Shown: one piece after another, positions 1,276-16,360 of the stretch
How the letters are laid out: the number at the start of each line of letters is the position of its first letter
Position numbering within the stretch: position 1 is the stretch's first letter
Assembly (NCBI GenBank): GCA_048939765.1
Contig: JBHLPF010000016.1
Coordinates: 30 to 64,029 of the forward strand
Source: Promethearchaeota archaeon
Lineage (GTDB): Archaea > Asgardarchaeota > Thorarchaeia > Thorarchaeales > Thorarchaeaceae
Direction: 5' to 3'
Length of the DNA stretch: 64,000 bases
The notes under the pieces: model-generated
What the model was told of the DNA's origin: nothing
Databases searched by the model: none
The model's input: the letters and a program-made list of their open reading frames with translations, nothing else
Program-made: the position numbers and the translations under genes

Positions 1276-1427
1276 AATGATCACGTGAACTATGGAATAC
1301 TTGAATATCAAAACTCGTAAACTCCCTGGTTGGTTTTTCATATTCATGTTTGATTGAATTTCCCAAAACCCGACCGCACTGTTTGTTTTCATGCAGACTC
1401 AAAGAGAGAGAAAGGATAGAAGGAGCG

Positions 1428-1455
1428 GGACGGGCGCACCCTTGCGGGGCCGTCC
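1428..1455 (-). promoter_or_regulatory. GC-rich 3'-UTR hairpin: candidate SECIS element and/or operon terminator
   Basis: mRNA sense is GGACGG-C-CCC-GCAA-GGG-UGCGC-CCGUCC: a 6-bp lower stem, an asymmetric internal loop, a 3 G-C pair upper stem and a 4-nt loop. It lies 30 nt after the vhuU stop and is followed by a pyrimidine-rich tract. Confidence 0.4.
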
Positions 1456-1485
1456 AACCCAGTCCAAGTCTTTACGACCGAGTCT

Positions 1486-1650
1486 TCATCCGCCGCCAGT
1501 CACGAGCTCCTTCCTGACTATCTCGCGACACTCCCCATCATCGTCTTCCTCAACGACGACGAAATGAGCGCCGCATGATAGTCAGCAGTCGTAGCACCGC
1601 ACAACCATCTCTACGAGGTTGAGCAGTCCTTCCGGTATTTCTTCCGTCAT
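1486..1650 (-). CDS. vhuU: VhuU-like mini-subunit: selenocysteine-containing C-terminal segment of the [NiFe(Se)] hydrogenase large subunit (TGA at 1584..1582 read as Sec)
   Basis: Manual translation from the ATG 11 nt after the vhuA stop gives MTEEIPEGLLNLVEMVVRCYDC-U-LSCGAHFVVVEEDDDGECREIVRKELVTGGG*. This matches the C-terminal Ni-ligand motif RxYD[PC][C/U]xxCxxH, which the upstream 438-aa subunit lacks. The track misses it because of the in-frame TGA. Confidence 0.8.
1514..1585 (-). promoter_or_regulatory. coding-region RNA structure around the Sec codon (9-bp perfect inverted repeat plus inner 8-bp hairpin)
   Basis: Plus-strand CTGACTATC (1514..1522) and GATAGTCAG (1577..1585) are exact reverse complements, and the 5' arm in the mRNA includes the UGA. 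An inner stem pairs 1555..1562 with 1538..1545. Confidence 0.35.
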
Positions 1651-1661
1651 GTTTTACACCA

Positions 1662-2978
1662 TTATCTCTTCACCATAGGCTCTGGAAGCTTCAAGCTCTC
1701 GTGAGCCTTGTCTTCGAAAATCTGCTTAGCTGCGACCATGAGAGACTTCTCTATGCCCGCAATGTTGTTGTTAGTGGCGACGACGAGGTTCGCCTTGGTG
1801 AGCATCCCCTCGTCGTCTGAGATGTAGTTGTGCAGGAGAATGCCCCGAGGTGCTTCCACGATTCCCACGCCATCTCCCGCCTTGGGTTCTACATCGGAGA
1901 GTTTTACATCTGTGCTAACAATGTCAGGATCTTGGAGTAGGGTCGCTATCCATTCGAATGCCTGTACCAACTCAATGATTCGTGCATAGTGATATGCAAA
2001 GGTGTGGTGTGAAGGTCTACCCACCAGTTCACGCATCTCTTTGAGCGCCGCATCTGCCAGAGGAGTTGCCATCTTCTCATTGACATTGCAACGGGCCAGG
2101 GTGTTTGCACGCCATATGCCATCGGGATATCCTGCTGGCTTGTAGTATATATGAGTTGCATAGCTGTGTTTAGCTACATGTTCACCGTAGTATTTCGTAT
2201 AGTCTTTTGGTTCGAAGTCCGCGACTATTTTGCCACCCGGCTCTTGCACTCGCACAGTACCGTCATAGATGTCAAGTTCCCCTTTGTTTGAGAGACCTAT
2301 GTAGTAGGTTGGAACCACAGCGACCTTTGTTATCACATCAAGGTAGTCCGTCACCACCTTCTTTGCAAGGTCAACGGTATTCAGTGTTAGTTGCTGAATC
2401 TCTTCGAGCCGTCCGATGAAAAAGTCACGGTCCTCTTCCTTCATCGAAGTCAGCATTCCACCGGGAATTCCGGTCGTCGGATGTACCGCCTTCGCGCCGA
2501 TGGCTCTGATCAGCTCTTGACCGAACTCCATCAGTTTGATTGCTTGAACAGCCACATCAGGGAGGTCTCTCAACACAGCTGCAACATTTCTATCCGCAGG
2601 ATTTGCAAATGGCCCGTACACAAAGTCAGGAGCAGCAAGTGCGTAGAAGTGGATTGCATGTGATGAGAACTGCTTCGCCTCTATCATCAACCTGCGTAGT
2701 TTGATTGCAGCAGGAGGAGGTGTAATATCCCAAGCCGCCTCAACAGCCTTGATTGATGCAAGATGGTGAGGAATCGGGCAGATACCGCAAATCCTGGGAG
2801 CAATCCGTGGAGCCTCCTCCATGGGACGTCCTTCTAGGAATTTCTCAAAGAACCTTGTGCTATTCACGTTGAACTGTACATCTTTGACCTTGCCATCCTT
2901 GCCCAGTTTGAGTGTCAATGAGCCATGACCCTCGAGCCGAGTCACTGGATCAATTCGGATGGTCTTCTCTTCTGTCAT
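1662..2978 (-). CDS. vhuA: [NiFe] hydrogenase large subunit, MvhA/VhuA type (group 3c-like), lacking the C-terminal Ni-ligand motif
   Basis: 438 aa with N-terminal PVTRLEGHG and the RICGICPIPH (RxCGxCxxxH) motif. It ends ...KLPEPMVKR without DPCxxCxxH. ATGA overlap with vhuG. Confidence 0.9.
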   Translation of the reverse strand: MTEEKTIRIDPVTRLEGHGSLTLKLGKDGKVKDVQFNVNSTRFFEKFLEGRPMEEAPRIAPRICGICPIPHHLASIKAVEAAWDITPPPAAIKLRRLMIEAKQFSSHAIHFYALAAPDFVYGPFANPADRNVAAVLRDLPDVAVQAIKLMEFGQELIRAIGAKAVHPTTGIPGGMLTSMKEEDRDFFIGRLEEIQQLTLNTVDLAKKVVTDYLDVITKVAVVPTYYIGLSNKGELDIYDGTVRVQEPGGKIVADFEPKDYTKYYGEHVAKHSYATHIYYKPAGYPDGIWRANTLARCNVNEKMATPLADAALKEMRELVGRPSHHTFAYHYARIIELVQAFEWIATLLQDPDIVSTDVKLSDVEPKAGDGVGIVEAPRGILLHNYISDDEGMLTKANLVVATNNNIAGIEKSLMVAAKQIFEDKAHESLKLPEPMVKR

Positions 2979-3898
2979 TTTGTCTTCGCCTCCTCGCGCT
3001 TAATTCTCATTCTTCCAAGGTGACTAGAAGCATAGTCGAATCTCCAGAAAGTTCCCAAGGGGTCTTTCACTTGTTCCACCAACTTCTCGGGCTCAATTGG
3101 CGCATATGATCCTAGCATCGAGATTGATGCTGCGCCGTGGTCCTGCGTAACTGGCGGTGGTGGACCAAAGCATCCACGACAGGTGGCACCTTTATTCACG
3201 CACTGACCCTCACATAGACCCCAGGTTGCAGAGCCTACGCAGATGTAGCCTTGTTCTAGCAGGCACCTGTCTGGGTCAGCAATTCCTTGATACGGTCGCA
3301 AAATCTCATTGATAGGAGTGTCCTTCTTCTCTCGATTGCAATAGTGGCACACAGTATGTGGCGGAAGGTCTATGGGCTGACCTGAGAGAAGCGCGCTCAC
3401 TGCTGTGTATATGAGGTCAGGAGTGGGTGGACAACCGGGAAGGTAGATGTCGATGTCCACAAAGTCAGAGTTTGGTTTCACCACGGGGGCTATTCCAGGC
3501 AAGTTCTCATATGGAACCTTGCCATCCTTCACAGTCTTATTGTTCCTGAATTTGACATCATAGCATTCCTCGATATCAGAGAAATTAGCCAAACCTGGTA
3601 TCCCACCAAAGCATGAGCATGAACCGAAGGCTATCAGTATCTTGCATTTTTCACGCATCAACTTCAGTAGATGAATATCCTCCTCGGTTCGTGCCATTCC
3701 TTCATAGAGGCCCACAACGATTGACTTGTCTTCATAGCTCTCCAGATGATGGAGCTTGAAGTCTGCAACTGCCTGCCAATATTTAATCTCAATCGCTGGA
3801 AGAACCTCAGCCAATCGGAGGTGAATGTCAACAAGACTCTGGAAACAACCCCAGCAGCTCGACCCTTGGCCCATTGCAATTGGAACTGGATCTGCCAC
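2975..3898 (-). CDS. vhuG: [NiFe] hydrogenase small subunit, MvhG/VhuG type
   Basis: 307 aa with Cys clusters (SSCWGC, GSCSCFGG, LPGCPP, CHYC, CRGCFGP) typical of small subunits. GTG start with a GGGAGGT SD. Confidence 0.9.
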   Translation of the reverse strand: MADPVPIAMGQGSSCWGCFQSLVDIHLRLAEVLPAIEIKYWQAVADFKLHHLESYEDKSIVVGLYEGMARTEEDIHLLKLMREKCKILIAFGSCSCFGGIPGLANFSDIEECYDVKFRNNKTVKDGKVPYENLPGIAPVVKPNSDFVDIDIYLPGCPPTPDLIYTAVSALLSGQPIDLPPHTVCHYCNREKKDTPINEILRPYQGIADPDRCLLEQGYICVGSATWGLCEGQCVNKGATCRGCFGPPPPVTQDHGAASISMLGSYAPIEPEKLVEQVKDPLGTFWRFDYASSHLGRMRIKREEAKTK

Positions 3899-3900
3899 CT

Positions 3901-4134
3901 TCAGACCTCCCTCAGTTTGAAGACGAGCTCATGATGCTCCTCTCCCGCGATCTCTATATTGCCCCATCGAAGCAAGCCAAGTAGGTTCCACATGAGCACC
4001 TTCTTGTCCATCTCTGTCTTCTCGCTGATTGTGCTGACACTTGCTGGGCCTTCCTTGAGTGATTCAAGTATGGACTTCCTCTGTTGCGTCACAACAGCAT
4101 AGTTCTGATCGAAGTACATTGTGAACTCTGTCAT
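3901..4134 (-). CDS. small winged-helix-like protein conserved in both hdr operons
   Basis: Start trimmed to the ATG at 4134, which forms an ATGA overlap with the mvhD stop and has GGGAGGT 8 nt upstream. The 77-aa product RKSILESLKEGPASVSTISEKTEMDKKVLMWNLLGLLRWGNIEIAGEE is clearly homologous to 14191..14556. Confidence 0.6.
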   Translation of the reverse strand: MTEFTMYFDQNYAVVTQQRKSILESLKEGPASVSTISEKTEMDKKVLMWNLLGLLRWGNIEIAGEEHHELVFKLREV

Positions 4135-4571
4135 ACCCATGACCTCCCTATTGGACCAACTTCTTTCACTTGTTCTATTAGCTTCGTCACTCCGTCTGCG
4201 AATACCTGCGCCTCGGAGGCACTTGCCCACTGAAGTCGGATTCGTCTTGGGTCAATGCCCGCCTGTTTGACTGCTTCAGCCATAATTGCCCATCTGGCTC
4301 TCATCTTCAAATTACCAGATGTATAGTGACAGTCTCCTGGATGGCATCCTGATACCAATACTCCATCTGCACCCTGATCAAGTGCACCAAGGATAAACTC
4401 GGTGTCAATCCTTCCAGTGCAGTTTACCCGGATGATACGTGCATTGGGTGGATATTGGATTCGGCTTGTACCAGCCAAGTCCGCTCCAGCATAACTACAC
4501 CAATTGCAGCAGAATGCTACAATCCTCGGTTCCCATTCATTACTAGTCTTGGTTTTGGATGCAGTGGCCAT
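4131..4571 (-). CDS. mvhD: MvhD/VhuD-type [2Fe-2S] electron-transfer subunit
   Basis: IVAFCCNWCSYAGADLAG ... VSGCHPGDCHY, the MvhD/FlpD signature. TAATG overlap with hdrA. Confidence 0.9.
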   Translation of the reverse strand: MATASKTKTSNEWEPRIVAFCCNWCSYAGADLAGTSRIQYPPNARIIRVNCTGRIDTEFILGALDQGADGVLVSGCHPGDCHYTSGNLKMRARWAIMAEAVKQAGIDPRRIRLQWASASEAQVFADGVTKLIEQVKEVGPIGRSWV

Positions 4572-6337
4572 TAGGCAGAACCTCCTTCAGGGTTCATAGG
4601 CGGACACAGAAACGCCTCAACCATTGCAAGAATTTGGTCATCAGTGGAGTGTAACATCATAATTGCAGAACTAGGACAAGCTGCTGCGCATGTGCCGCAT
4701 CCATGACACTTCGCCTCCGTCACGAATGCGATGGGCGGATCGTGTGACTCATCCATTGAGATCGCTCCGTATGGACAAGCGGTGACACATGTATGACAGG
4801 ATGAGCAAAGCTCCGGTGTGACACGTGATACAGTAGCCTCTATCTCTACATCCCCGCGAGCCATGAGTCCAACTGCTTTTGCGGCTGCGCCACTGGCGTC
4901 CGTTATTGCCTCAGAAGCGCTCTTTGCCGCTTGAGCTCCCCCTGCAATCATCACGCCAGCGGTGTGTGTGGTCAAGGGCGCAAGCTTGACATGCTCAGGA
5001 TTGAAGAATCCATCTGGACTTCTTGTGAGGCTGAAGACCTTGGAAACCTCGTCAACTCCATCAGGGGGCACCAATGCTGTGGCTAGGACTAACAGGTCTG
5101 GTTTCATTGCGAGGTCGTCGTCAGAGAAGACATCATGCCAATGCAGAGCCAGCTCTCCATCCGAAACCTGAGCTCGCGGCTTCTTCTCTGGCGGGTATTT
5201 GCTGTAGATGACGTGCTTGGCTCTGGCCTCTCTATGTATCTCTTCATGACCTCTTCCATATGTTCTGAGATCCTCATACAGAATGACTATTTCATCGGCA
5301 ATGTCCTTGAGTTCTCCTGCACTCTTTGCGATTGCTGTGCAACAGACCCTGGAGCAGTGTTCATGCCCCATCACACCAGCCTCACGAGAACCTACGCATC
5401 CAATGTACGCAATAGTTTTTGGTGGTTTTCCATTGCTTGGCCTCAAGACCTCTCCCTTGAGGCGCATTTCCTCCAGCTCAGCTAGTGTCACAATGTCCGG
5501 ATGGTCTCCGTAGGAATAGTAGTTGTACGGTTTGAATGGTTGAATCCCGGTGGCCACAATAATAGTGCCGACTCGATGTACCTTGTCCACATCATTTGTG
5601 GTCACTGTTATATCGAAGTTGCCAATATAGCCATCGAGGTCAGTCACAGTTGACTCCGTTAAGACTTCGATCCTGTCATGACCCTTTACCCTATTGATGA
5701 GCTGCTTCGTCAATGTATCACCCTGCTCACCTGTTGGATAGACACTAGCCAGCTTCGCCACTTGTCCTCCGAGGTTCTTCTCTCGTTCGACAAGAATGGC
5801 ATCAAAGCCTCGGTCTGCCACATCCAGAGCTGCACGCATCCCAGTGACGCCGCCTCCAACAACCAGAGCTTTCGGCTCTACTTTCACAGTCTTGACGGGC
5901 AGAGACTCAAGAAGCGCAGCACGTGCAACTGACATCCTGACAAGGTCCTTTGCCTTCTCTGTTGCTTCCTCAGGCTGTCGCATATGGCACCATGCCACGT
6001 GTTCTCTGAGGTTGACTTGATCAAACAAGTAGCGGTTAACATCCGCCTCTTCAACTACTCTCCGAAATGTCGGTTCATGCATCCGTGGACTACAGGAAGC
6101 GACAACCACACGGTTTAGATTATACTCCTTGATACTGTCCTTGATGAGCTGCTGTCCTGAGTCTGCACACATGAACATCGTCGACGTGGCGAACGCCACG
6201 TGAGGTAGACTCTCCGCGCTCTTGGCCACAGCCTCCACATCGACTGTACCTGCGATATTGTGCCCACACATGCAGACGAATACACCAATTCTTGGCACAT
6301 CGGCTGCAGCATCTGTTTTGATTTCTGCTTCAGTCAC
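4571..6337 (-). CDS. hdrA: heterodisulfide reductase subunit A (N-terminal Cys domain + FAD domain + C-terminal 2x[4Fe-4S])
   Basis: N-terminus RIGVFVCMCGHNIAGTVDVEAV...VVVASCSPRMHEPTFRR as in methanogen HdrA. Also GGGVTGMRAALD, CVGSRE...CSRVCC, and the C-terminal CSSCHTCVTACP / CHGCGTCAAACP. GTG start with GTGA overlap. Confidence 0.9.
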   Translation of the reverse strand: MTEAEIKTDAAADVPRIGVFVCMCGHNIAGTVDVEAVAKSAESLPHVAFATSTMFMCADSGQQLIKDSIKEYNLNRVVVASCSPRMHEPTFRRVVEEADVNRYLFDQVNLREHVAWCHMRQPEEATEKAKDLVRMSVARAALLESLPVKTVKVEPKALVVGGGVTGMRAALDVADRGFDAILVEREKNLGGQVAKLASVYPTGEQGDTLTKQLINRVKGHDRIEVLTESTVTDLDGYIGNFDITVTTNDVDKVHRVGTIIVATGIQPFKPYNYYSYGDHPDIVTLAELEEMRLKGEVLRPSNGKPPKTIAYIGCVGSREAGVMGHEHCSRVCCTAIAKSAGELKDIADEIVILYEDLRTYGRGHEEIHREARAKHVIYSKYPPEKKPRAQVSDGELALHWHDVFSDDDLAMKPDLLVLATALVPPDGVDEVSKVFSLTRSPDGFFNPEHVKLAPLTTHTAGVMIAGGAQAAKSASEAITDASGAAAKAVGLMARGDVEIEATVSRVTPELCSSCHTCVTACPYGAISMDESHDPPIAFVTEAKCHGCGTCAAACPSSAIMMLHSTDDQILAMVEAFLCPPMNPEGGSA

Positions 6338-9075
6338 TCTACTTCACCTCCCCTCGCGAGGACAATAGTTGCTCTCATCGCTGCTGCACTTCCTGCTGCA
6401 ACAGAGTCCGGAATGTCTTTCGGACCGTCGGAGCAGCCGCAGGTGTAGATGCCATCCACATCTGCATCAACTGGGTACAACAGCGGATGTTCTACCTTCA
6501 CATACCCATCGTCATCAAGTTCAATTCCAATGTCATCTGCGAGAATTCGCATGCCCTGTGAAGGTTGGATTCCTCCGCTTAGAACAATTAAATCATGCTT
6601 GTTCTGCAGAAACATTAGATCCTCTATGTTCTCAACTCTGACTAGAGAATCTCCATAGTCGGTTTCTACTACTTCAGCGACTCTGCCTCTGATGAAATTG
6701 ACCCCGAATCGTGTCTTAGCCATTTCAAGGAACTCCTCAAAGCCCTTCCCAAATGCTCTGATATCAGCATAGTACACGGTGACGTCAATATTGGGATCAT
6801 GTTCCTTTGCCATGACAGCATTCTTGATGGAATACATACAACAAACTCTTGAACAATTAGGTACTCCTTTGCTCAAATCTCTCGCGCCTACGCAATTGAT
6901 GAACCCTATTGAGCGAGGCGCCTTGCCATCACTCAGACGAACCAAGTGGCCAGCCGTCGGTCCAGCTGCATTGATCAAACGCTCATACTCCATTGCAGTG
7001 ATGACATTCGGTTGGGTTTCATATCCAAGACGAGGATACTCTTTGACGTCAAACAACTTGTAGCCAGTTGACATCACAATTGCTCCTACATCAAGCTCGA
7101 TTATCTTATCCTGCTGAGTATGGTCTATTGCTTCACGCTGACACGCTTCAACGCACTCCATACACTCGGAGCACACAGTGCAGTTCAGACATCTTCCCGC
7201 CTCGACTGCAGCGGTTTCAGCATCAAAACCAGTCTCCACTTCCTTGAAGGTGGTTCTTCTGTTGTAGATTGATATCTTTGGCATTTCTGCTCTTGGATGA
7301 ACTCCGAAGCGTGCCTTTCTGATTTCTTCAGAAGCAACTTCCAAGAAGGTCTCGGGGCGACCTGTTTTCAAGTCCTCACCTTGGAGGAATCTATGAATAG
7401 ACTCAGCGGCGGCATTTCCTTGACCTACGGCCTCAACGACAAGTCCAGGACCAGTAGCAAGATCACCGCCTGCAAAGACATTCTCCATGCTTGTCTGGAG
7501 AGTGACGGGGTCGACCACTGGAGTTCCCCACTCAGTCATTTCCAGCCCAACATGAGGACCTTTCGGATCAGCACGCTGACCTATTGCGATAATCATGTTC
7601 TCGAATGGAATCGAGAACTCGGAACCAGGAATCGGCACTGGTCGTCTTCTTCCTGAGTCATCAGGCTCCCCGAGTTTCATTTCTATACAGGTGACTCCTA
7701 GGAGTTTCCCCTTTGACTCGATGCACTCTGCAGGATTCGTTAGAACCTTCAACTCTATTCCTTCCTCAAGTGCATCTTCGATTTCATTATGAATTGCTGG
7801 CATCTCTGCCCTTGACCTTCGATAGATGATGGTCACGTTCTTGACACCAAGTCTCTTGGCAACCCGGGCTGCATCAATTGCAGCGTTGCCGCCACCAATG
7901 ACAGCCACATTGTGGCCGAGTGAGACTTCTTCACCACGGTTCACTCTGTCAAGGAAATCAATTGCATGATATACTCCAGTTGACTCCTCTCCCCTAATTC
8001 TCAATTTCGAGCTGATTGGAGCACCAGTCCCTAGGAATACAGCTTTGAAGCCCTCTTTTAGAAGGCTCTCGACGGAGGTGATCTCCTTGCTACACTGGAT
8101 CTTGACACCCATGCTTTCAACGATCTTGATTTCATCAGCGAGAACGTTTCTTGGAAGTCGGTGCTCGGGAATTGCATAGCGGAGCAATCCGCCAGCCTCT
8201 TCGCGCTTCTCGAATACAGTCACCGGATAGCCCAATCTCACCAGTTTCTCGGCACAGGCAATACCTGCGGGTCCAGCGCCGACAACAGCGACCTTCGCCT
8301 TCTTGTCAATGACCGGGATTTCTCCCTTATACCCTCCTTCTTCACGCTCATTGTCATAGAGCCACCGATGTAGGTTGCGGATACTAACTGCGTCATCAAC
8401 AGTACGTCTCTCACACTTCTCCTCACAGAGAGCAGGACAGACACGGCCAAGTGAGCCAGGAAACGGAATCGCATCTCTGACCAGCTTCAATGCCTTGCCA
8501 TTCTCGCCTCTTCGCATCAAAGCCGTGAAACCTTGAGCATTGACATGTGCAGGACAGGTCGTAAAGCATGGAGCGTGGCCACGCTTGTCGATTGTATGTG
8601 TGTTAGGGGTTGCCTGCGGGAAGGGAATATAGATTGCCTTCCTGAATCCTATTCCTTGGTCAAATTCGTTGGGAACCTCAATCGGACAGGCAGACACACA
8701 GTCTCCGCAGCCATTACACTTCTCTTCGTCCACGTATCGCGCTTTCTTGAGAACCTTGACTTTGAAGTTGCCAGCGCTTCCAGAAACCTCCTGAACCTCA
8801 CTGTATGTGAGCAGCTGAATATTCGGATGCCGCTGCACCTCACTTAGTCGAGGTGTCAGAATGCAAGCAGAACAATCCAAGGTGGGGAAGGTCTTATCGA
8901 TCATGGCCATGCGGCCACCGATGCTGCTTGATTTCTCAAGCAGGTGAACCTTGTAGCCTTGATCAGCTATGTCCAAGGCTGCTTGCATCCCAGCGACTCC
9001 TCCACCCACTACAAGGGCTTCATTCGACCATTTGCCTTTGGTGGCACTAGTCTTTGGTCTGGCCAGGGTCACCAC
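6334..9075 (-). CDS. HdrA-like flavoprotein lacking the N-terminal domain, with an inserted GltD/NfnB-like NAD(P)H:FAD [4Fe-4S] module
   Basis: HdrA parts: VVGGGVAGMQAALD, DKTFPTLDCSACIL, CVGARD...CSRVCC. Insert: FPGSLGRVCPALCEEKCERR, VAVVGAGPAGIACAEKL, GGLLRYAIPEHRLP, VIGGGNAAIDAAR, RRRPVPIPGSEF, FAGGD. Confidence 0.85.
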   Translation of the reverse strand: MVTLARPKTSATKGKWSNEALVVGGGVAGMQAALDIADQGYKVHLLEKSSSIGGRMAMIDKTFPTLDCSACILTPRLSEVQRHPNIQLLTYSEVQEVSGSAGNFKVKVLKKARYVDEEKCNGCGDCVSACPIEVPNEFDQGIGFRKAIYIPFPQATPNTHTIDKRGHAPCFTTCPAHVNAQGFTALMRRGENGKALKLVRDAIPFPGSLGRVCPALCEEKCERRTVDDAVSIRNLHRWLYDNEREEGGYKGEIPVIDKKAKVAVVGAGPAGIACAEKLVRLGYPVTVFEKREEAGGLLRYAIPEHRLPRNVLADEIKIVESMGVKIQCSKEITSVESLLKEGFKAVFLGTGAPISSKLRIRGEESTGVYHAIDFLDRVNRGEEVSLGHNVAVIGGGNAAIDAARVAKRLGVKNVTIIYRRSRAEMPAIHNEIEDALEEGIELKVLTNPAECIESKGKLLGVTCIEMKLGEPDDSGRRRPVPIPGSEFSIPFENMIIAIGQRADPKGPHVGLEMTEWGTPVVDPVTLQTSMENVFAGGDLATGPGLVVEAVGQGNAAAESIHRFLQGEDLKTGRPETFLEVASEEIRKARFGVHPRAEMPKISIYNRRTTFKEVETGFDAETAAVEAGRCLNCTVCSECMECVEACQREAIDHTQQDKIIELDVGAIVMSTGYKLFDVKEYPRLGYETQPNVITAMEYERLINAAGPTAGHLVRLSDGKAPRSIGFINCVGARDLSKGVPNCSRVCCMYSIKNAVMAKEHDPNIDVTVYYADIRAFGKGFEEFLEMAKTRFGVNFIRGRVAEVVETDYGDSLVRVENIEDLMFLQNKHDLIVLSGGIQPSQGMRILADDIGIELDDDGYVKVEHPLLYPVDADVDGIYTCGCSDGPKDIPDSVAAGSAAAMRATIVLARGGEVE

Positions 9076-9983
9076 TTTGCCTCCTGCTCGCGGCGGATGA
9101 CCTTAGACTCTATTCTATGAGCGAATTCGAGTAGGACATCAGGACTAATCTTGTTCAGGGGTAAGCCAAGGGTTTCTTGATCGATTCCCATGGCAGCTCC
9201 CATGAATTGGGGCAATGTGAGTACTGGAATTCGATCCCTTGGTTCACCACCTTCGCCAAACTGAACCTGTGTCAGCTGAATATTACAGAATACACACGCG
9301 GTCAGTATTCCTTTGGCTCCTGCGGCCTTGACGTTTGTAATCTTCTCAGAGCCAATGGCAGTGGCTAATTCCTCATCCATGGCGAGCATTGGGCCTCCAC
9401 AGCACCGGACCTTCCCTGCGTAGTCAACAGCTTGAGCACCACAGGCTTCAATGATATCATCGATAGACCTTGGCACCTCGGGATCGTCTACTTGAACTAT
9501 TTCAGCCGGACGGGTCACGTGGCAACCATAGTGTGCAGCGAGAACTACTCCGTTATACGGCTGAACTACTGCTCTTCTAATCGCATCGTAGCCCACCTCA
9601 TCTCGAAGGATTTGCAGAAGGTGCTTCACCTCAACTTTGCCGGTGTATTCTAGGTCTTCCTCGGCCAGAATTTCGTTGACTGTGGCCTTTAGTTCAGGCT
9701 CATTGTCCAGCATGTGTTTCACATGTTTCAGGGAACCGGAACATGCTCCACAGATTGCAATGATATCTTTCCCGAACCGCTCTGCAATTGCCAGAAGACG
9801 CCCACTCATAGCTGCGAAAGCTTCCCGACTCAGTGATTCAACATATTGAGCCCCGCAGCAATTAACATCCTTCATGTGGTGAGCAGTTACACCAAGGTGC
9901 TTTAGGACCGCCATAGTGGCTGCTTCGTAGGCAGGAAGCCTGACTGGTGTAGTGCAACCAGTGTAAACAAAATAGTCTGTCAA
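9069..9983 (-). CDS. hdrB: heterodisulfide reductase subunit B (two CCG domains)
   Basis: DVNCCGAQ...CGACSGS and VRCCGGP...CVFCNIQ. TTG start with TTGA overlap and a GGAGGTGA SD. Confidence 0.9.
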   Translation of the reverse strand: MTDYFVYTGCTTPVRLPAYEAATMAVLKHLGVTAHHMKDVNCCGAQYVESLSREAFAAMSGRLLAIAERFGKDIIAICGACSGSLKHVKHMLDNEPELKATVNEILAEEDLEYTGKVEVKHLLQILRDEVGYDAIRRAVVQPYNGVVLAAHYGCHVTRPAEIVQVDDPEVPRSIDDIIEACGAQAVDYAGKVRCCGGPMLAMDEELATAIGSEKITNVKAAGAKGILTACVFCNIQLTQVQFGEGGEPRDRIPVLTLPQFMGAAMGIDQETLGLPLNKISPDVLLEFAHRIESKVIRREQEAKW

Positions 9984-10546
9984 CTCCCATCACCTCCAGA
10001 GAAATACTTCTTCTTCAATCTTTGAGTGAATTCATTATTCCATCCCAAGTCGGTGTCAAGGCCTAAGTCATCTCTGTCATCCTCGATGAAGTCAGAGTAT
10101 GCATCTCCTAGAAGCCACCCATCGCTTAGGGCTTTCTCCACTGTTGATTTGAAAACCTCAGGGACATATCCATCCCTTGCAGCAATGTGTCGGACAGCCT
10201 GAAAGATCTCAGCCGGACTGACACCCTCTTGGCATCTCTCTTCGCACATTCTACATGTCATGCAAAGCCATGGCAAATCGCTCTGCAAGACTTCATCCCT
10301 CTTTCCAATGATTATCTTCTGAATGAGCTGGCGCGGGCGGTATCTATCGGAAAAAGAAGATACGGCACATGATGCTGTGCATATTCCGCACTGAATGCAC
10401 TTGTTGATGCCTTCGCCACCAGGTTCAGCTGCCACCTCTTTAGCAAAATGGGAAGAAGGAGTATGTTCAGCTTCAATTCCTTTATCGGTCTCTGTTCGAG
10501 TACCCATGTTTGGTCGACCTCTTTCAGACAGGATTCTCCGGACCAT
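9980..10546 (-). CDS. hdrC: heterodisulfide reductase subunit C (2x[4Fe-4S])
   Basis: CIQCGICTASC and CMTCRMCEERC. The start is ambiguous: the ATG at 10546 has its SD directly abutting, while the ATG at 10507 has AGAGGT 8 nt upstream and aligns with the paralog N-terminus. Confidence 0.85.
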   Translation of the reverse strand: MVRRILSERGRPNMGTRTETDKGIEAEHTPSSHFAKEVAAEPGGEGINKCIQCGICTASCAVSSFSDRYRPRQLIQKIIIGKRDEVLQSDLPWLCMTCRMCEERCQEGVSPAEIFQAVRHIAARDGYVPEVFKSTVEKALSDGWLLGDAYSDFIEDDRDDLGLDTDLGWNNEFTQRLKKKYFSGGDGS

Positions 10547-10680
10547 CCACCTTGTAACAAGGGGCTGGCTATCCTTTCTCCGTCTGTAATCTGTGGTGGA
10601 ATTCCAGTTACAGGATGTGCCGAAACTCCGACAAAGTGATTATATGTCTAGTGTCTTCGAGGAGTGCGTATCTCGTTCAT

Positions 10681-10701: not shown

Positions 10702-10804
10702 CGAGGGTTATGCTCCGTGTTCGATATCGACACTATGATGTGTTTCTATGAAATTCCCCTTTTCTGAATGATTTTCTTGTGTTTTGTTGACTTGTGAACT
10801 CATG

Positions 10805-13800
10805 TCACGGGCCCACTTCAGAGTAAAGATTTCTTGAAGCAGCTTCAATCATAGGCATAAGTTGACTTGTCTTGTAGTGCTTCATGTCGATTGCATTCTG
10901 CGGGCAGGCCGCGCTACAAGTGCCGCATCCTTGACATGCCTCTCGCGCAATCAACATAGCATCGTCCTCAAGCCGAGGTGCTCCATAGGGACAGACTTCA
11001 GCACATAATTCACATTTGATGCATTTGTTGGTGTCAATCTCTGCGTAGATGGGTTCTATTTTGAATTCTCCAGGCCCCATCAAAGCTTGCGCCTTCGCGG
11101 CGGCTGCTTCACCCATTGAAACTGCTTTGGCGATGTCCATTGGACCAAGGCAAGCGCCAGCGACAAACACACCATCCTGGAACGACTCTACTGGCCTTAG
11201 TTTGGGATGTGCGCAAAGGAAGTACCCATAGTGGTCAGTGGTCATCTTCAGCATACGCGCCATATCGGGATTCTCAGGCTGTGGATGTAATGCTGTCGCC
11301 AAGACAACTAAGTCATATGTGAGCCCAATATTCATTCCAGTATACAGGTCTTCAGCATATACCTGGATCTTGTCCTCTATCGGGTTATGCTCCAATTCAG
11401 AAGCCCTCCCTTTCACGATGTTGACACCCATCTCACGTGCTCTCTGATAGAGCTCCTCGTATCCGATACCATGCGTTCGAATATCCATCGTGTATATCGT
11501 AACATCAGTTTCTGGATACTTCTCCTTGATTTGAGTTGCTTGCTTCAGAGAGTTTTCACAGCCAACATAGCAGCAGTAGTCTCTATCGAACCTTGCATCA
11601 CGAGACCCTACGCATTGGAGGAATGCAATGCTAGATGGGGTTTTTCCGTCAGAAGGTCGTTTTATCTTACCATGAGTTGGCCCAGCAGCATTTGTCAATC
11701 GTTCGAACTGTGCATTTGTGATGATATGGGGTAGAATTCCGTACCCGTACTCACGAGTGTCCACTGGTTCGTATGAACGTGAACCTGTGGTAACGATGAT
11801 GGTTCCTACATCTCGGTTCAGAATCTGGTCTGTCATTTTGTGGTCTATAGCATTCGCCTTGCATGCGTCGACACATTGGTTACATTCGCAACATACTGCA
11901 CAACTGATACATCGTTCAGCTTCAGCTAGTGCGCTCTTCTCATTGAATCCAAGTTCGACTTCAGCAAAGCTATTCTTTCGCTTCCCTGTGCTCAATACAG
12001 GCATGACAACTCTGGGAGAACTCCGGATCCCATCCTTGAGGATGAGATCCTTAGGCACAGGAGATGGTTCTTCTCCTCTTCCTAGCGCAAGGTCTTCGCC
12101 AGTTAGGAACCTATCAATTGAGATGGCCGCCTCCTTGCCTGCTCCTACAGCTTCAACGACAGTGGCAGGACCCGTGACCACATCGCCCCCCGCAAAAACG
12201 CCCTTCTTGCTTGTCTGATATGTAACCTCGTCGACAACGACTGTGCCCCACTTAGTAAGCTCTAGGCCCTTGAGTGGACCTTTCGGATCGACTAGCTGAC
12301 CAATCGCAATTATGATGTCATCAACCTTCATATCATACTCCGAATCTGGTATTGGAATGGGACGCCTCCGACCTGATGCATCCGGTGCACCGAGACGCAT
12401 CTGAACACATCGGATTCCATTCACTTTCTCGTCAGTCTCGAGTATCTCCACAGGCGATGATAGAATCTTTATTTTGATTCCCTCTCGTTCAGCCTCATCT
12501 ATTTCACTGCGGATGGCAGGCATCTCATCCCTTGACCGACGATAGACAATTGTGACTCGATTTGCACCCAGGCGCTTTGCACTTCTAGCTGCATCAATCG
12601 CGGCATTCCCGCCACCAATCACAACCACATCTTCACCGAGCGTGACCTTTCTTCCTTGATTGAATCGCTCCAAGAAGTCAAGGGCATGATGAACACCTTT
12701 TGCGTCTTCTCCATTCACTTTTAGCTTACTACTCAACGATGCACCAGTTGCCAGAAAGACCGCTTTGTAACCGTCCTTCTTTAGGTCAGAAAGAGATTCG
12801 ACATTCACTCCTGTCTTCATCTCAACACCCAACGATTCGACTGCTGCGATTTCTTCCCCAAGAATTTCTCTTGGAAGACGGTACTCTGGTATTGCATATC
12901 GCAACAAGCCCCCTGCTTCAGGCTTTGCCTCAAAGACTGTCACTGGATAGCCCAATTTGATAAGATCGTAGGCACATGCAATCCCAGCTGGTCCTGAGCC
13001 AACTATTGCCACTTTCTTTTTCTTGGTTGGCTTGATTCGTGCAAATGGGTCTTCACCTTTCTCGCGTGCGTTGTCAGCCAAGAAACGATGGAGATTCCTA
13101 ATGGACAATGGCTCGTCGATTGATCCCCGCTCGCATCTCTCTTCGCAAAGACTTGTGCAAACCCTACCTAGCGAACCAGGGAATGGATTCGACTCCCGAA
13201 AGATCTCGAGCGCCTTGTCAAAGTTCTTCTCACGCATCAGTGTGATAAATGCATGGCTGTTGACTCCTGCAGGACAAGCTATTCGGCAAGCAGCTGTGCC
13301 TCTCTTATCAATGGTGAATGTGTTGGGCACTGCTTGTGGAAATGGTCGATAGATTGCCTTTCTATCAGCTAGACCATATTCGTATTCATTTGTCACACGA
13401 ACTGGGCATACTGGTTCACATTCACCGCAGCCATTGCAGGCATCAGCACTGACATAGCCTGCTTTCTTTCTAACTGAGAGTTTGAAATCACCCACATGAC
13501 CATCCACTTTCTCCAGCTCACTATACGCAAGGAGTTCGATCTCAGGATGTCGTTCTACTGATGCCATGATGGGGCCAAGTATGCAGATTGCGCAGTCATT
13601 TTGGGGAAACACCTTATCTAGAAGAGCCATCTGTCCGCCTATGGTTGGTCGCTTTTCTATGAGAGAAACCGGATAGCCAGAATTGGCCAGGTCCAGTGCC
13701 GCAGAAATTCCAGCAACGCCTCCGCCCACAACAGCTACTCGAGGTATGATCACTACGGATTCCATTTCCAGTGATTCAAGTTTTCGGGCACGTGCAATAG

Positions 13801-14194
13801 CCATCTCTATAAGGTGCTTTGCCTTTTCGGTCGCCTTTTCCTTTTCATCCATATGACACCATGAAACATGTTCCCGAATGTTCACCATCTCGAAGAGGAA
13901 TCGGTTTAGTCCAACCTCTTCGATCGTCTTTCGAAATACAGGCTCATGTGTCCGTGGCGTACATGATGCAACAATGACCCTATTGATATCATGTTCCTCT
14001 ATACTCTCTTTTATCGACTTAAGGCCGTCAGAAGAACAGGTGAACATGAGATCATTACTGAAGACTACGTTTGGAAGGTCCTTGACATGGTCACGCACAG
14101 CTTCCACGTCAACAGTCCCTGCAATGTTCAGGCCACAGTGACAAGTCCAGACTCCAATTCGGACATCGTCGCTTCTATCAACTGCCATCATCAT
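10805..14194 (-). CDS. full-length HdrA with inserted GltD/NfnB-like NAD(P)H module (1129 aa)
   Basis: N-terminal domain RIGVWTCHCGLNIAGTVDVEAV...ASCTPRTHEPVFRK; VVGGGVAGISAALD; insert FPGSLGRVCTSLCEERCERG, VAIVGSGPAGIACAYDL, GGLLRYAIPEYRLP; CVGSRD; C-terminal CIKCELCAEVCP / CQGCGTCSAACP. Confidence 0.85.
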   Translation of the reverse strand: MMMAVDRSDDVRIGVWTCHCGLNIAGTVDVEAVRDHVKDLPNVVFSNDLMFTCSSDGLKSIKESIEEHDINRVIVASCTPRTHEPVFRKTIEEVGLNRFLFEMVNIREHVSWCHMDEKEKATEKAKHLIEMAIARARKLESLEMESVVIIPRVAVVGGGVAGISAALDLANSGYPVSLIEKRPTIGGQMALLDKVFPQNDCAICILGPIMASVERHPEIELLAYSELEKVDGHVGDFKLSVRKKAGYVSADACNGCGECEPVCPVRVTNEYEYGLADRKAIYRPFPQAVPNTFTIDKRGTAACRIACPAGVNSHAFITLMREKNFDKALEIFRESNPFPGSLGRVCTSLCEERCERGSIDEPLSIRNLHRFLADNAREKGEDPFARIKPTKKKKVAIVGSGPAGIACAYDLIKLGYPVTVFEAKPEAGGLLRYAIPEYRLPREILGEEIAAVESLGVEMKTGVNVESLSDLKKDGYKAVFLATGASLSSKLKVNGEDAKGVHHALDFLERFNQGRKVTLGEDVVVIGGGNAAIDAARSAKRLGANRVTIVYRRSRDEMPAIRSEIDEAEREGIKIKILSSPVEILETDEKVNGIRCVQMRLGAPDASGRRRPIPIPDSEYDMKVDDIIIAIGQLVDPKGPLKGLELTKWGTVVVDEVTYQTSKKGVFAGGDVVTGPATVVEAVGAGKEAAISIDRFLTGEDLALGRGEEPSPVPKDLILKDGIRSSPRVVMPVLSTGKRKNSFAEVELGFNEKSALAEAERCISCAVCCECNQCVDACKANAIDHKMTDQILNRDVGTIIVTTGSRSYEPVDTREYGYGILPHIITNAQFERLTNAAGPTHGKIKRPSDGKTPSSIAFLQCVGSRDARFDRDYCCYVGCENSLKQATQIKEKYPETDVTIYTMDIRTHGIGYEELYQRAREMGVNIVKGRASELEHNPIEDKIQVYAEDLYTGMNIGLTYDLVVLATALHPQPENPDMARMLKMTTDHYGYFLCAHPKLRPVESFQDGVFVAGACLGPMDIAKAVSMGEAAAAKAQALMGPGEFKIEPIYAEIDTNKCIKCELCAEVCPYGAPRLEDDAMLIAREACQGCGTCSAACPQNAIDMKHYKTSQLMPMIEAASRNLYSEVGP

Positions 14195-14556
14195 TCATCC
14201 CCTTTGGTTCCCATTAGGCTCCTAGCGTACAGGTACTCCCGTTTCTCTTCACCCACAATTTCGACCTCGTTCCATTTCATCAATGCCAAGATATTCCAGA
14301 GGACTCTGTGTGGCTCAAGTTCCGTTGCCCTCGCGATTTGTGAGACCGTTGCGAAACCATCATCCAATTGCTTCAGAATATAGTGCCTTTCGTACTCCTC
14401 TTGGATGGTCTTGTCTACCAACTCCTTAAATCTCTCTTGAGTTAGTTCGCCATTTTGGACAAGAACATCACCCTTTCCTATGAGCCATCTGAGTCGTTCG
14501 TCTCCGAAAGCATCCACCATCGCCTCTATGCGACTACTATCTACTGTTTCTCTCAT
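14191..14556 (-). CDS. small winged-helix-like protein, paralog of 3901..4134 with an N-terminal extension
   Basis: RHYILKQLDDGFATVSQIARATELEPHRVLWNILALMKWNEVEIVGEE aligns with the operon-1 protein. ATGA overlap with the downstream hdrA. Confidence 0.6.
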   Translation of the reverse strand: MRETVDSSRIEAMVDAFGDERLRWLIGKGDVLVQNGELTQERFKELVDKTIQEEYERHYILKQLDDGFATVSQIARATELEPHRVLWNILALMKWNEVEIVGEEKREYLYARSLMGTKGDE

Positions 14557-14558
14557 AA

Positions 14559-15896: not shown

Positions 15897-16360
15897 GTCC
15901 CAGCACCTCCTGCTATTGCTGCTTCCTTCTGTCTAGCCTTCGGGATTGGTTTAGACAATGGACTGGGACCCAGTTTCTTGATGGTTTGGGTCATCTCAGT
16001 TATGCCTTCAGCCCATTGCTGGCCCTCCGATGCACTTGCCCATAGCAGCTTCAATCTATCAGGATGTAAGCCCATTAGGCTCAGCGCAGAGGATAGAGCT
16101 TCATAACGAACAAGTGTGCGATAATTGCCAGTAGAATAATGGCAATCTCCAATGTGGCATCCACTTATTATAACGCCGTCAGCTCCGTTCTTGAAGGCTT
16201 GGAGAACCATTAACGGATCCACACGGCCAGAACACATCAGGCGGATGACCTTCGCATTTGTGGGATACTGGATTCGAGAAATTCCGGCTAGGTCAGCCCC
16301 TCCGTACGAACACCAATTACAGGTGAAAGCCACAATATTCGGCTCAAAGCTCTTGCTCAT
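15893..16360 (-). CDS. mvhD: MvhD-type [2Fe-2S] subunit
   Basis: IVAFTCNWCSYGGADLAG...ISGCHIGDCHY, with a roughly 25-aa C-terminal tail. Confidence 0.85.
   Translation of the reverse strand: MSKSFEPNIVAFTCNWCSYGGADLAGISRIQYPTNAKVIRLMCSGRVDPLMVLQAFKNGADGVIISGCHIGDCHYSTGNYRTLVRYEALSSALSLMGLHPDRLKLLWASASEGQQWAEGITEMTQTIKKLGPSPLSKPIPKARQKEAAIAGGAGT

Follow-up and report, generated by a model that had tools for sequence, protein, structure and literature searches.

Among the closest described relatives of the locus analyzed here are the MvhADG-HdrABC and Vhu-Hdr complexes of methanogens (5ODC, 8RVU, and 9SFI), in which HdrA, a single four-domain polypeptide, forms a homodimer. [quoted passage not shown] 2022, PMC9012536). 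The idea of a heterodimeric HdrA has already been proposed for the ANME tandem HdrAs and for NfnB-inserted HdrAs. In Moorella thermoacetica, a MetFV-HdrABC-MvhD complex oxidizes NADH and contains 2 FAD in HdrA (Mock et al. 2014; PMC5861303).

Our locus lies in a 64,000-nt stretch of DNA (the window, to which all coordinates refer) from an Asgard archaeon of the Thorarchaeota lineage. In common with the methanogen complexes, it encodes a group-3c [NiFe(Se)] hydrogenase with split VhuA/VhuU and selenocysteine (Sec), an MvhD bridge, HdrB with two CCG non-cubane motifs, HdrC, and FAD-containing HdrA domains. In contrast to them, it has two complementary partial HdrAs that would form a heterodimer, a low-potential exit domain interrupted by an NfnB/GltD NAD(P)H module, and a winged-helix protein, and the organism is a member of the Thorarchaeota without mcrA, comA, and comB.

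A nine-gene Hdr-Vhu operon

The nine genes are all on the minus strand and span 10546..1486. Inspection of the open reading frames gave the order hdrC-hdrB-hdrA'-hdrA-mvhD-wHTH-vhuG-vhuA-vhuU, with every gene at the position assigned to it in an earlier note on this DNA, and Pfam and PDB searches agreed with the nine identities proposed there. The eight junctions are likewise as first described: TTGA, a 7-nt GTG..TGA overlap, GTGA, TAATG, ATGA, a 2-nt gap, ATGA, and an 11-nt gap. GGAGG-like Shine-Dalgarno sites precede seven of the eight internal starts. With only overlaps or gaps of 11 nt or less between them, the nine genes are translationally coupled and probably form one operon, as had been claimed.

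We scanned the nine-gene span for transcription signals and found no oligo-T run (T5) or TATA-like box at the internal junctions; its two T5 runs and both of its TATA-like matches are inside coding sequence. The earlier note had held that internal promoters or terminators, or orthologues scattered in relatives, would speak against a single unit. The junctions are clean and the orthologues are syntenic. The 258-nt spacer upstream of hdrC contains one TATA-like match, ACATATAATCA (10635..10645, minus strand), which is kept in the aligned loci L001, L002, L016, and L019 and is a candidate promoter of the nine-gene unit. At the other end, a GC hairpin with a CCCCGCAAGGG core followed by a pyrimidine-rich tract (1400..1455, minus strand) is conserved in 13 loci and is probably the operon terminator; the gene that follows begins at 1392. 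Directly upstream of the nine genes lies a second coupled Hdr operon. Because no clear terminator was found between this operon and hdrC, the nine genes are a minimum transcription unit rather than a proven boundary, and the unit may be larger.

The hdrC gene (9980..10546, minus strand) encodes 188 aa as its longest reading frame, with Pfam Fer4_8/Fer4_17 matches and two [4Fe-4S] motifs (cysteines 50/53/56/60 and 95/98/101/105). In an upstream alignment with four close relatives, frame-breaking indels precede a conserved AAAGAGGTCGACCAAAC-ATG, and the true start is therefore probably the ATG at 10507 (Met14; 175 aa) rather than 10546. The TTG start of hdrB (9069..9983, minus strand; 304 aa) overlaps the hdrC stop as TTGA. 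HdrB has two CCG domains (Pfam CCG, 4e-24), and all ten cluster cysteines aligned with PDB 8rvu_b (2e-58). Two CCG motifs in HdrB and two [4Fe-4S] clusters in HdrC are what is expected of MvhADG-HdrABC.

The hydrogenase genes also conform to this type: both [NiFe] subunits, large and small, are of group 3c, and MvhD accompanies them. MvhD (4131..4571, minus strand; 146 aa; Pfam FlpD, 8.6e-52) is the [2Fe-2S] electron bridge, and VhuG (2975..3898, minus strand; 307 aa) is the small subunit (Pfam Oxidored_q6; PDB 5odc_E, 1e-60). VhuA (1662..2978, minus strand; 438 aa) is a group-3c large subunit that has the RICGICPIPH motif and lacks the C-terminal Ni-binding motif; it matched the 418-aa split VhuA 9sfi_g (1e-126) and 5odc_F (2e-104). 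The C-terminal piece of the large subunit is VhuU (1486..1650, minus strand; 54 aa), which reads ...VRCYDC-U-LSCGAH... through an in-frame TGA, the Sec codon, at 1584..1582. Its alignment covers MvhA residues 423-452 and the 27-aa VhuU chain 9sfi_M, with YDC-U-LSCGAH opposite YDP-C-LSCATH of MvhA, such that Sec replaces the first Cys of the C-terminal Ni-binding motif, as in Vhu-type hydrogenases with a split large subunit. Thirteen other Thorarchaeota operon copies, from 12 loci, keep the Sec TGA without exception.

A eukaryote-like SECIS element (1450..1489, minus strand) begins with an AUGA that overlaps the vhuU stop and continues with a 9-bp helix, a G/C-AAA apical loop, and a 3' GAC. Among 14 sequences compared with RNAalifold, the ATGA, AAA, and GAC never vary, and compensatory changes occur in at least five helix pairs. 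The element matches the description of type I Asgard SECIS elements, which are known for these archaea (PMC11227280). The genome also encodes tRNA-Sec (identified with ARAGORN) and SepSecS (2e-110); the recoding signal and these two parts of the Sec machinery, as expected with a Vhu-type [NiFeSe] hydrogenase, are thus present.

Gene order is conserved in related genomes, as the earlier note's proposal presupposed. At least 12 complete Thorarchaeota loci show synteny of the gene set, and the close relatives L002 and L016 have the same nine genes in the same order (contig ends interrupt L001, L019, and L030). In distant Thorarchaeota (58-63% identity; L003, L004, L008, L009, L010, L018, L023, L026, L031, and L033), the order is hdrA'-hdrC-hdrB-(hdrA445)-hdrA-mvhD-wHTH-vhuGAU. 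In L015, a complete chromosome, the homologue of hdrA' seems to be truncated at its 5' end, and hdrCB does not lie next to it.

Two complementary HdrA proteins

The first HdrA, HdrA' (6334..9075, minus strand; 913 aa), has a TrxR-like FAD domain, the motif FPTLDCSAC (Cys197), and an NfnB/GltD module that splits the inserted ferredoxin domain. Its flanks align to residues 144-298 and 300-577 of 8rvu_a. The insert of ~470 aa (residues ~165-633) matched NfnB 5jca_L (1e-81) and GltD 2vdc_G (5e-56), as well as 4ylf_B. The module contains two [4Fe-4S] clusters, FAD, and an NAD(P)H site (Fer4_20 and Pyr_redox_2, a second Rossmann GxGxxG, and YRR at residue 418), and these motifs predict activity with NAD(P)(H). 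From what holds for GltD and NfnB, the YRR motif presumably means that NADPH is preferred over NADH. Pfam, PDB, and motif evidence all agree with the earlier description of this protein as an N-terminally truncated HdrA with a GltD/NfnB-type NAD(P)H module. That description missed a second loss: by PDB alignment and motif check, the C-terminal ferredoxin domain is absent as well as the N-terminal domain.

The second protein, HdrA or HdrA588 (4571..6337, minus strand; 588 aa), has an N-terminal cluster domain (CMCGHNI), an FAD domain, CSRVCC, and a C-terminal 2x[4Fe-4S] ferredoxin domain. It aligns to residues 9-242 and 328-657 of 8rvu_a, and the same two analyses found neither the inserted ferredoxin domain nor the Cys197 motif (DCxxC). 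Within the pair, Cys197 is therefore in the 913-aa protein only and the N-domain CxCGxNI in the 588-aa protein only. Neither protein holds all four domains of the homodimer-forming methanogen HdrA; the two are complementary in the N-terminal domain, Cys197, and the inserted and C-terminal ferredoxin domains. The pair is thus not a normal HdrA accompanied by an extra one. Since both are partial and exactly complementary, an obligate heterodimer may take the place of the methanogen homodimer.

The motifs of HdrA588 and HdrA913 follow the tandem-HdrA pattern of Chadwick et al. As described in that paper, adjacent ANME hdrA genes show the same complementarity between Cys197 and the N-terminal domain, and the same NfnB-like insert of ~470-500 aa occurs (PMC9012536). 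Here, on the other hand, both features are found in one HdrA pair, and the pair goes with a [NiFeSe] hydrogenase, not with FdhAB or unknown partners, in a non-methane-metabolizing Asgard archaeon with a dedicated winged-helix protein.

In Spirochaetes and Bacteroidales, the HdrA pair is fused in the same order in proteins of 1,492 and 1,512 aa that keep the pattern of motifs, and many fused relatives of ~1,475-1,565 aa exist. The bacterial homologues of HdrA' and HdrA (38-44% identity) occur in hdrC-hdrB-hdrA(fused)-mvhD-metV-metF clusters. This order was checked with Pfam in L021, while in L022 hdrC-hdrB-hdrA(fused)-mvhD is followed by a candidate 222-aa ORF at the metV position. Bacteroidota keep a split pair next to mvhD, tusA, and dsrE2. 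The Moorella enzyme, by its description, has the module of HdrCB, NAD(P)H-linked HdrA, and MvhD in common with our operon (PMC5861303); there the MvhD partner is MetFV and HdrA is fused, whereas here the partner is a hydrogenase and HdrA is split in two genes.

Because the domains are complementary and the pair is fused in bacteria, an obligate HdrA/HdrA' heterodimer is the best reading. We infer the physical heterodimer from these two observations, and we consider an operon with this architecture likely. The earlier note had compared the gene set with the methanogen complex and counted the truncated HdrA and the winged-helix protein as additions. The locus is no isolated oddity; it belongs with known classes (PMC9012536, PMC5861303). 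Many distant Thorarchaeota operons encode a third HdrA (445-type) with the features of HdrA' minus the NfnB module. The gene set therefore does not fix the stoichiometry, and HdrA588 may alternate between partners. HdrAs may also cross-pair between loci, given at least ten other paralogues elsewhere in the genome.

The small winged-helix protein

The wHTH gene (3901..4134, minus strand; 77 aa) is ATGA-coupled to mvhD. Its AF2 model is a winged helix (pLDDT 92.6, topology H-H-H-H-E-E), and Foldseek matched it to winged-helix, ArsR/SmtB, and Z-alpha folds (probability 1.0, TM 0.65-0.72), including HlyU (4K2E), CzrA (1R1U), NolR, SqrR, and the PKZ Z-alpha domain (4KMF). The note's identification of a small winged-helix protein is therefore sound. 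The protein is kept in 19 Thorarchaeota operons, is always in one operon with Hdr genes in the loci examined, and is confined to Thorarchaeota and Sifarchaeia, where it occurs only in Hdr operons. Its homologue in at least 96 proteins of the Bacteroidota type is a C-terminal extension of 588-type HdrA (hhalign probability 94.4%, E 8.5e-8). Because this homologue is a domain fused to HdrA, wHTH probably belongs to the enzyme and may be more than a regulator. It would most likely be a detachable accessory domain of 588-type HdrA, and it may dock a partner or tie the enzyme to DNA.

It could be argued instead that wHTH is merely an ArsR/SmtB-type autoregulator outside the enzyme that binds the conserved upstream region. 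It has the ArsR/SmtB winged-helix fold, the repressors HlyU, CzrA, NolR, and SqrR are among its best fold matches, and there is a weak Pfam HTH_5 match (19.1 bits, under the 22-bit cut-off). The spacer that precedes hdrC has conserved palindromes, TCGATATCGA and TGGAATTCCA, and a CGATATCG core is likewise found upstream of the second Hdr operon. However, the other Hdr clusters of the genome show no enrichment of these palindromes nearby, and at 77 aa the protein is shorter than ArsR proteins and lacks their extra dimerization helices. The residues of a metal or redox sensor are missing too, as 22 of 23 family members have no Cys and no His is conserved. Its net charge is near neutral to acidic (family mean -0.6; -3 for the protein of our operon), every locus has it translationally coupled between structural genes, and 588-type HdrA carries a homologous domain as a covalent C-terminal fusion. 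We regard a purely regulatory role as rather unlikely, although the roles of regulator and enzyme component are not mutually exclusive.

The proposed complex and its alternatives

The nine genes probably encode a single cytoplasmic flavin-based electron-bifurcating or -confurcating complex with an obligate heterodimer of complementary HdrA paralogues as its core, where methanogens have an HdrA homodimer. Electrons would pass from the [NiFeSe] hydrogenase (VhuA/VhuU-VhuG) via the [2Fe-2S] cluster of MvhD to the MvhD-facing ferredoxin domain of this core, where FPTLDCSAC of HdrA' (the Cys197 equivalent) would supply the cysteine ligand missing from the N-terminal cluster of HdrA588. The only low-potential exit would be the inserted ferredoxin domain, contributed by HdrA', with the NfnB/GltD-like module (FAD, two [4Fe-4S], NAD(P)H) spliced into it. 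HdrBC, whose non-cubane cluster ligands are intact, would form the high-potential thiol/disulfide branch.

A different view is that two enzymes are encoded side by side, a classical Vhu/MvhD-HdrA(588)-HdrBC complex with homodimeric HdrA and an independent NAD(P)H-dependent HdrA913 flavoprotein, acting alone or with other Hdr paralogues. The many other Hdr clusters and HdrA paralogues of the genome offer possible partners, and distant relatives place hdrA913 upstream of hdrC, away from hdrA588. A homodimer of HdrA588, however, would have neither the Cys197 ligand nor a low-potential exit domain. In a homodimer of HdrA913, the Cys197 motif would be an orphan, and both the N-terminal cluster and the ferredoxin domain that faces MvhD would be missing. 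Both HdrA types are moreover found in one polypeptide in bacteria, and the pair is adjacent or co-operonic in every Thorarchaeota locus seen, so we consider two separate enzymes improbable. Far less probable still is a CoM-S-S-CoB-reducing MvhADG-HdrABC of the methanogen type. The operon has members of all six canonical subunit families, and HdrB keeps its cluster ligands, but the HdrA architecture differs, and the disulfide is left unnamed in the Asgard literature (PMC11291895). The lack of a methanogenesis context, noted before for the neighborhood, extends to the whole 88.5%-complete genome: profiles for mcrA (PF02249), ComA (PF02679), and ComB (PF04029) gave no match while controls responded. 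Since the organism lacks mcr and comA/comB (CoM biosynthesis), the disulfide substrate would differ from that of methanogens.

For the single heterodimer-based complex, we tentatively suggest a reversible coupling of H2/H+ with NAD(P)+/NAD(P)H, and also with ferredoxin and/or a disulfide other than CoM-S-S-CoB. The H2 pressure would set the direction, such that NAD(P)H and reduced ferredoxin are made from H2 or disposed of as H2. Electron path, substrates, and direction are all deduced from sequence; because electron transfer from H2 to NAD(P)+ is exergonic alone, it does not follow from the sequence that bifurcation is needed, nor what part ferredoxin and HdrBC would play. Taken as a whole, the operon appears to be a conserved variant of a known enzyme class, in which a selenium hydrogenase would be wired to an electron-splitting flavoenzyme made of two half-HdrAs.

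Architecture and conservation of the nine-gene operon

Nine consecutive ORFs run on the minus strand from position 10546 to position 1486 of the window, in the order hdrC-hdrB-hdrA'-hdrA-mvhD-wHTH-vhuG-vhuA-vhuU. Pfam domains were Fer4 dicluster for HdrC, CCG for HdrB, Pyr_redox_2, Fer4_20 and FAD/NAD domains for the 913-aa HdrA' (HdrA913), FAD and Fer4 for the 588-aa HdrA (HdrA588), FlpD for MvhD, Oxidored_q6 for VhuG and NiFeSe_Hases for VhuA; wHTH encodes a 77-aa winged-helix protein. When extracted directly from the sequence, the gene order and all eight junctions matched exactly those listed in the earlier note: TTGA (hdrC/hdrB), a 7-nt GTG..TGA overlap (hdrB/hdrA'), GTGA (hdrA'/hdrA), TAATG (hdrA/mvhD), ATGA (mvhD/wHTH), a 2-nt gap (wHTH/vhuG), ATGA (vhuG/vhuA) and an 11-nt gap (vhuA/vhuU). 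GGAGG-type ribosome-binding sites precede seven of the eight internal starts. The true start of hdrC is probably the ATG at 10507 rather than 10546, because in an alignment of four close relatives indels break the frame upstream of a conserved AAAGAGGTCGACCAAAC-ATG.

Transcription as one nine-gene unit is predicted from the sequence. An oligo-T scan of 17 kb found only three T5 runs on the transcribed strand, every one intragenic. The spacer ahead of hdrC has one TATA-like box (10645) and that ahead of the neighboring Hdr operon has two (18011 and 17955); the only two others (16173 and 2152) are within coding sequence, and none occurs at an operon junction. Sigma-70 promoter and rho-independent terminator scans, which say little about an archaeon, gave counts that did not differ from those in shuffled sequence (13 vs 9.3 and 8 vs 7.9). 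Rfam at gathering thresholds and ARAGORN returned no matches over the window.

Immediately upstream lies a second coupled Hdr operon (10805-17834, minus strand), with the order hdrC2-hdrB2-mvhD2-hdrA(445 aa)-wHTH2-hdrA(1129 aa). Its 445-aa HdrA carries the Cys197 motif and no N- or C-terminal domains, and its 1,129-aa HdrA is full-length with an NfnB insert. The oligo-T scan found no terminator between this operon and hdrC, so transcripts may read through into the nine genes. Some 3-5 kb beyond this Hdr superlocus, on its upstream side, are genes for a GTP-dependent PEP carboxykinase and a divergently transcribed tungsten-type aldehyde:ferredoxin oxidoreductase (20457-24797), the latter a possible source of reduced ferredoxin. 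Elsewhere in the window, a 1,194-aa ORF (33048-36632, minus strand) had no Pfam match at E<=1e-6.

To assess conservation, one genome per prokaryotic species was scanned with the 913-aa protein, and gene order at the resulting 36 loci was mapped by tblastn with all window proteins. The majority of the loci are in Thorarchaeota-lineage Asgard MAGs, with 58-98% identity to the 913-aa protein. Close relatives have the identical nine-gene order (loci L002 and L016) or are interrupted by contig ends (L001, L019 and L030), and ten more distant Thorarchaeota loci read hdrA'-hdrC-hdrB-(extra 445-type hdrA)-hdrA-mvhD-wHTH-vhuG-vhuA-vhuU. The orthologs are thus not scattered in relatives, an outcome that by the earlier note would have refuted the operon.

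On the Thorarchaeota bin8 chromosome (CP070658.1; L015:9791-11746), the hdrA' homolog looks 5'-truncated, its remnant being a 651-aa ORF that starts near the NfnB FAD site. There hdrC and hdrB were not detected within 10 kb upstream of the hdrA' homolog, and the downstream hdrA-mvhD-wHTH-vhuGAU is intact; this could reflect decay, rearrangement or assembly error. On one Thorarchaeota contig (DXJO01000006.1, locus L009), ~400 bp separates two complete hydrogenase operons; both have a Sec-containing vhuU and a SECIS of their own, and one of them uses a 115-aa winged-helix paralog.

An asymmetric HdrA pair and its partners

The two HdrA proteins were aligned to methanogen HdrA (8RVU/5ODC). HdrA588 covers residues 9-242 and 328-657 and lacks the inserted ferredoxin domain. 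HdrA913 covers residues 144-298 and 300-577, and its inserted ferredoxin domain is interrupted, between the two cluster motifs, by ~470 further residues. This insert has its own GxGxxG and YRR motifs and matches NfnB, GltD and dihydropyrimidine dehydrogenase (5jca_L, 1e-81; 4ylf_B, 8e-79; 2vdc_G, 5e-56). The alignments and matches bear out the earlier suggestion of a second, N-terminally truncated HdrA carrying an NAD(P)H module. Motif inspection found the Cys197-type motif FPTLDCSAC in HdrA913 only, with VYPTGEQGD at that place in HdrA588, and the N-domain CxCGxNI motif in HdrA588 only; GxGxxG and CSRVCC are kept in both.

In the methanogen enzyme, Cys197 of one HdrA completes the N-terminal cluster of the other, the C-terminal ferredoxin domain is fed by MvhD, and the inserted ferredoxin domain is the low-potential exit (PMC9012536). 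Because Cys197, the N-domain and the ferredoxin domains are split between HdrA588 and HdrA913, a functional homodimer of either appears to be ruled out, and together they would supply one complete domain set. Exactly such complementarity led Chadwick et al. to propose heterodimeric HdrAs in ANME archaea, and HdrA9-11 of ANME-1 have an NfnB insertion of ~500 aa (PMC9012536); the Thorarchaeota pair resembles them in both respects.

Gene fusions provide what looks like independent support for the pairing. MAGs from Spirochaetes (L021) and Bacteroidales (L022) encode the 913-type (Cys197, NfnB insert) and 588-type (N-domain, C-terminal ferredoxin domain) HdrAs as single fusion proteins of 1,492 and 1,512 aa, with the two types in the same order, and a database search returned many fused relatives, about 1,475-1,565 aa long and 46-50% identical. 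The Spirochaetes cluster, hdrC-hdrB-fusion-mvhD-metV-metF adjoining formate-THF ligase, has the Moorella-type MetFV-HdrABC-MvhD arrangement, for which an HdrA with two FAD and NADH oxidation have been reported (PMC5861303). A split pair occurs in Bacteroidota as dsrE2-tusA-mvhD-hdrA(925, 913-type)-hdrA(671/733, 588-type) followed by a gene for an HdrC-like membrane protein. Recurrence of the fused or split pair beside different partner genes indicates that the asymmetric NfnB-HdrA'/HdrA pair is a portable core joined to differing partner modules. At the two Bacteroidota loci (L047, JANJVQ010000015; L048, PHCZ01000001), crp adjoins dsrE2-tusA-mvhD-hdrA(NfnB insert, 925 aa)-hdrA(588-type), the 588-type HdrA bears a C-terminal winged helix, and an HdrC-like protein fused to a membrane domain follows, with DsrC nearby in L048. 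These operons are a sulfur-relay-linked version of the core.

The source genome encodes at least ten further HdrA paralogs, including several 445-type and 588-type tandems and a second hydrogenase-linked cluster. On contig C37 (13366-20425; L051), hdrC-hdrB-hdrA(445-type) precedes a 588-type hdrA::mvhD fusion (721 aa), which is followed by a 761-aa protein and an acyl-CoA dehydrogenase. In the 761-aa protein, repeats with a weak likeness to the winged helix (E 4e-5 against the wHTH profile) are accompanied by a 2x[4Fe-4S] domain at the C terminus.

The winged-helix protein

Conservation of the 77-aa protein extends to 19 Thorarchaeota operons, in which its gene sits between mvhD and vhuG. AlphaFold2, run with a 23-sequence alignment, gave a canonical winged-helix topology (pLDDT 92.6), and the best PDB matches of the model were Z-alpha, the archaeal centromere-binding protein AspA and ArsR/SmtB repressors; the fold named in the earlier note is thereby upheld. 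The protein is near neutral to acidic and has no conserved Cys or His. Its family is small, with 180 proteins in a set of 5.8 billion (nearly all Thorarchaeota, one Sifarchaeia) and 96 representatives among 1.84 billion at E<=1e-3. A 115-120-aa paralog occurs in the upstream Hdr operon, where wHTH2 (14556..14194, minus strand, 120 aa) is ATGA-coupled to the 1,129-aa hdrA.

What might this protein do? A link to Sec decoding was rejected, as the 115-aa paralog type occurs in Hdr operons with no hydrogenase or Sec gene. Because the longer form ends hydrogenase-less hdrA-mvhD-hdrA-hdrA operons, the protein is Hdr-associated and not hydrogenase- or Sec-specific. It may bind DNA. A regulon or specific operator is without support, however, as the conserved palindromes found upstream are not enriched genome-wide or at other Hdr loci. 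Each of the two Hdr operons is preceded by such palindromes, TCGATATCGA and ACGATATCGT (10721-10730 and 17969-17978), and within the probable hdrC 5' UTR a conserved TGGAATTCCA (10597-10606) forms part of the inverted repeat CTGTAAC...ATTACAG. In the genome TGGAATTCCA has 13 copies, none at another Hdr locus, and CGATATCG has 60 copies vs about 51 expected.

A role as a component of the complex is more likely than that of a purely free regulator, because in Bacteroidota the winged-helix domain is covalently joined to a 588-type HdrA. A C-terminal extension is present in at least 96 HdrA proteins (660-740 aa), which come from Bacteroidota such as Paludibacter and Proteiniphilum. Among these, P0341 aligns collinearly with HdrA588 (33% identity, 1e-111), and its residues 611-667 matched the Thorarchaeota winged-helix profile (hhalign probability 94.4%, E 8.5e-8). 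The free Thorarchaeota protein thus seems to correspond to a covalent domain of 588-type HdrA elsewhere.

Hydrogenase, substrate and predicted electron flow

VhuA is closest to the solved 418-aa split VhuA (9sfi_g, 1e-126) and to MvhA (5odc_F), VhuG is closest to MvhG, and VhuU aligns with the MvhA C-terminus and the 27-aa VhuU chain of 9SFI. Within vhuU, an in-frame TGA occupies the position of the first cysteine of DPCxxCxxH (reading YDC-U-LSCGAH), and the 13 other Thorarchaeota operon copies compared, from 12 loci, all share it. Just downstream, an AUGA overlaps the stop codon and is followed by a 9-bp helix in which five or more pairs show compensatory changes, an apical loop containing AAA, and GAC; these features make up a predicted type I eukaryote-like SECIS, as described for frhA/vhuU genes of Thorarchaeia (PMC11227280). 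The GC-rich hairpin at 1428-1455 was rejected as the SECIS, since the covarying helix lies upstream of it and begins at the stop codon. A conserved GC hairpin and pyrimidine tract downstream of the SECIS are a probable terminator. The genome encodes tRNA-Sec and SepSecS; the Sec/SECIS/VhuU biology is already known.

Since the ten HdrB cluster cysteines are conserved, HdrBC likely carries out a thiol/disulfide reaction. Searches of the 88.5%-complete genome found no mcrA, comA or comB, and control genomes responded; the lack of mcr and CoM genes noted earlier for the neighborhood therefore extends genome-wide for these three. Because they are absent, the HdrB substrate is predicted not to be CoM-S-S-CoB. 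Sulfur carriers, suggested by TusA, DsrE2 and DsrC beside the Bacteroidota pair, are without local support, because TusA genes are on contigs C10 and C48, away from the operon, and DsrC is absent from the genome. MetF is on contig C52 and adjoins no Hdr cluster.

We infer the whole electron path through the complex as follows. [quoted passage not shown] From there one branch would reach the disulfide site of HdrB by way of the CSRVCC cluster and HdrC. A second branch would pass via a composite N-terminal cluster (HdrA588 N-domain and HdrA913 cysteine) into HdrA913's inserted ferredoxin domain, where the NfnB-like FAD would exchange hydride with NAD(P)+ and/or ferredoxin would be reduced. In the H2-consuming direction the complex would provide the Wood-Ljungdahl pathway with NAD(P)H and reduced ferredoxin; the H2-evolving direction would be confurcation, which has been proposed for MK-D1 (bioRxiv 10.1101/726976).

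A wider model is offered tentatively, and we think it rather unlikely to hold in full: the HdrA'/HdrA pair would serve as a portable asymmetric "double-bifurcase" core in which two flavins, both potentially bifurcating, are arranged in series, and MvhD would connect this core to an [NiFeSe] hydrogenase in Thorarchaeota, to MetVF in Spirochaetes and Bacteroidales, and to TusA/DsrE2 with a membrane subunit in Bacteroidota. The winged helix would be integral, either docking a partner or substrate protein or enabling the redox enzyme to bind DNA and control its own genes. The result in Thorarchaeota would be an [NiFeSe] hydrogenase of a kind not yet described, with H2 coupled to NAD(P)+, to ferredoxin and to a non-CoM disulfide.

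Every building block has precedent, in methanogen Mvh/Vhu-Hdr, the heterodimeric and NfnB-inserted HdrAs of ANME, Moorella MetFV-Hdr and Asgard VhuU selenoproteins. A literature search that covered few subscription journals found no paper on the nine-gene combination in Asgard archaea, on the asymmetric HdrA core recurring with other partner modules, or on homology between the winged-helix protein and an HdrA domain.

Hydrogen metabolism in Asgard archaea lies at the heart of eukaryogenesis models such as hydrogen or reverse-flow syntrophy, and papers on Asgard archaea usually show a methanogen-like "MvhADG-HdrABC" with "an unidentified heterodisulfide". The Thorarchaeota enzyme appears to be built differently from the methanogen form, with an asymmetric HdrA heterodimer and a built-in NAD(P)H module. 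Such a design alters the predicted stoichiometry and redox partners and makes NAD(P)H-linked hydrogen turnover a testable hypothesis. Non-methanogenic Hdr enzymes are poorly understood, and the recurring core and the HdrA-domain-like winged helix offer two new ways into them, one through a defined core and the other through a defined accessory protein.
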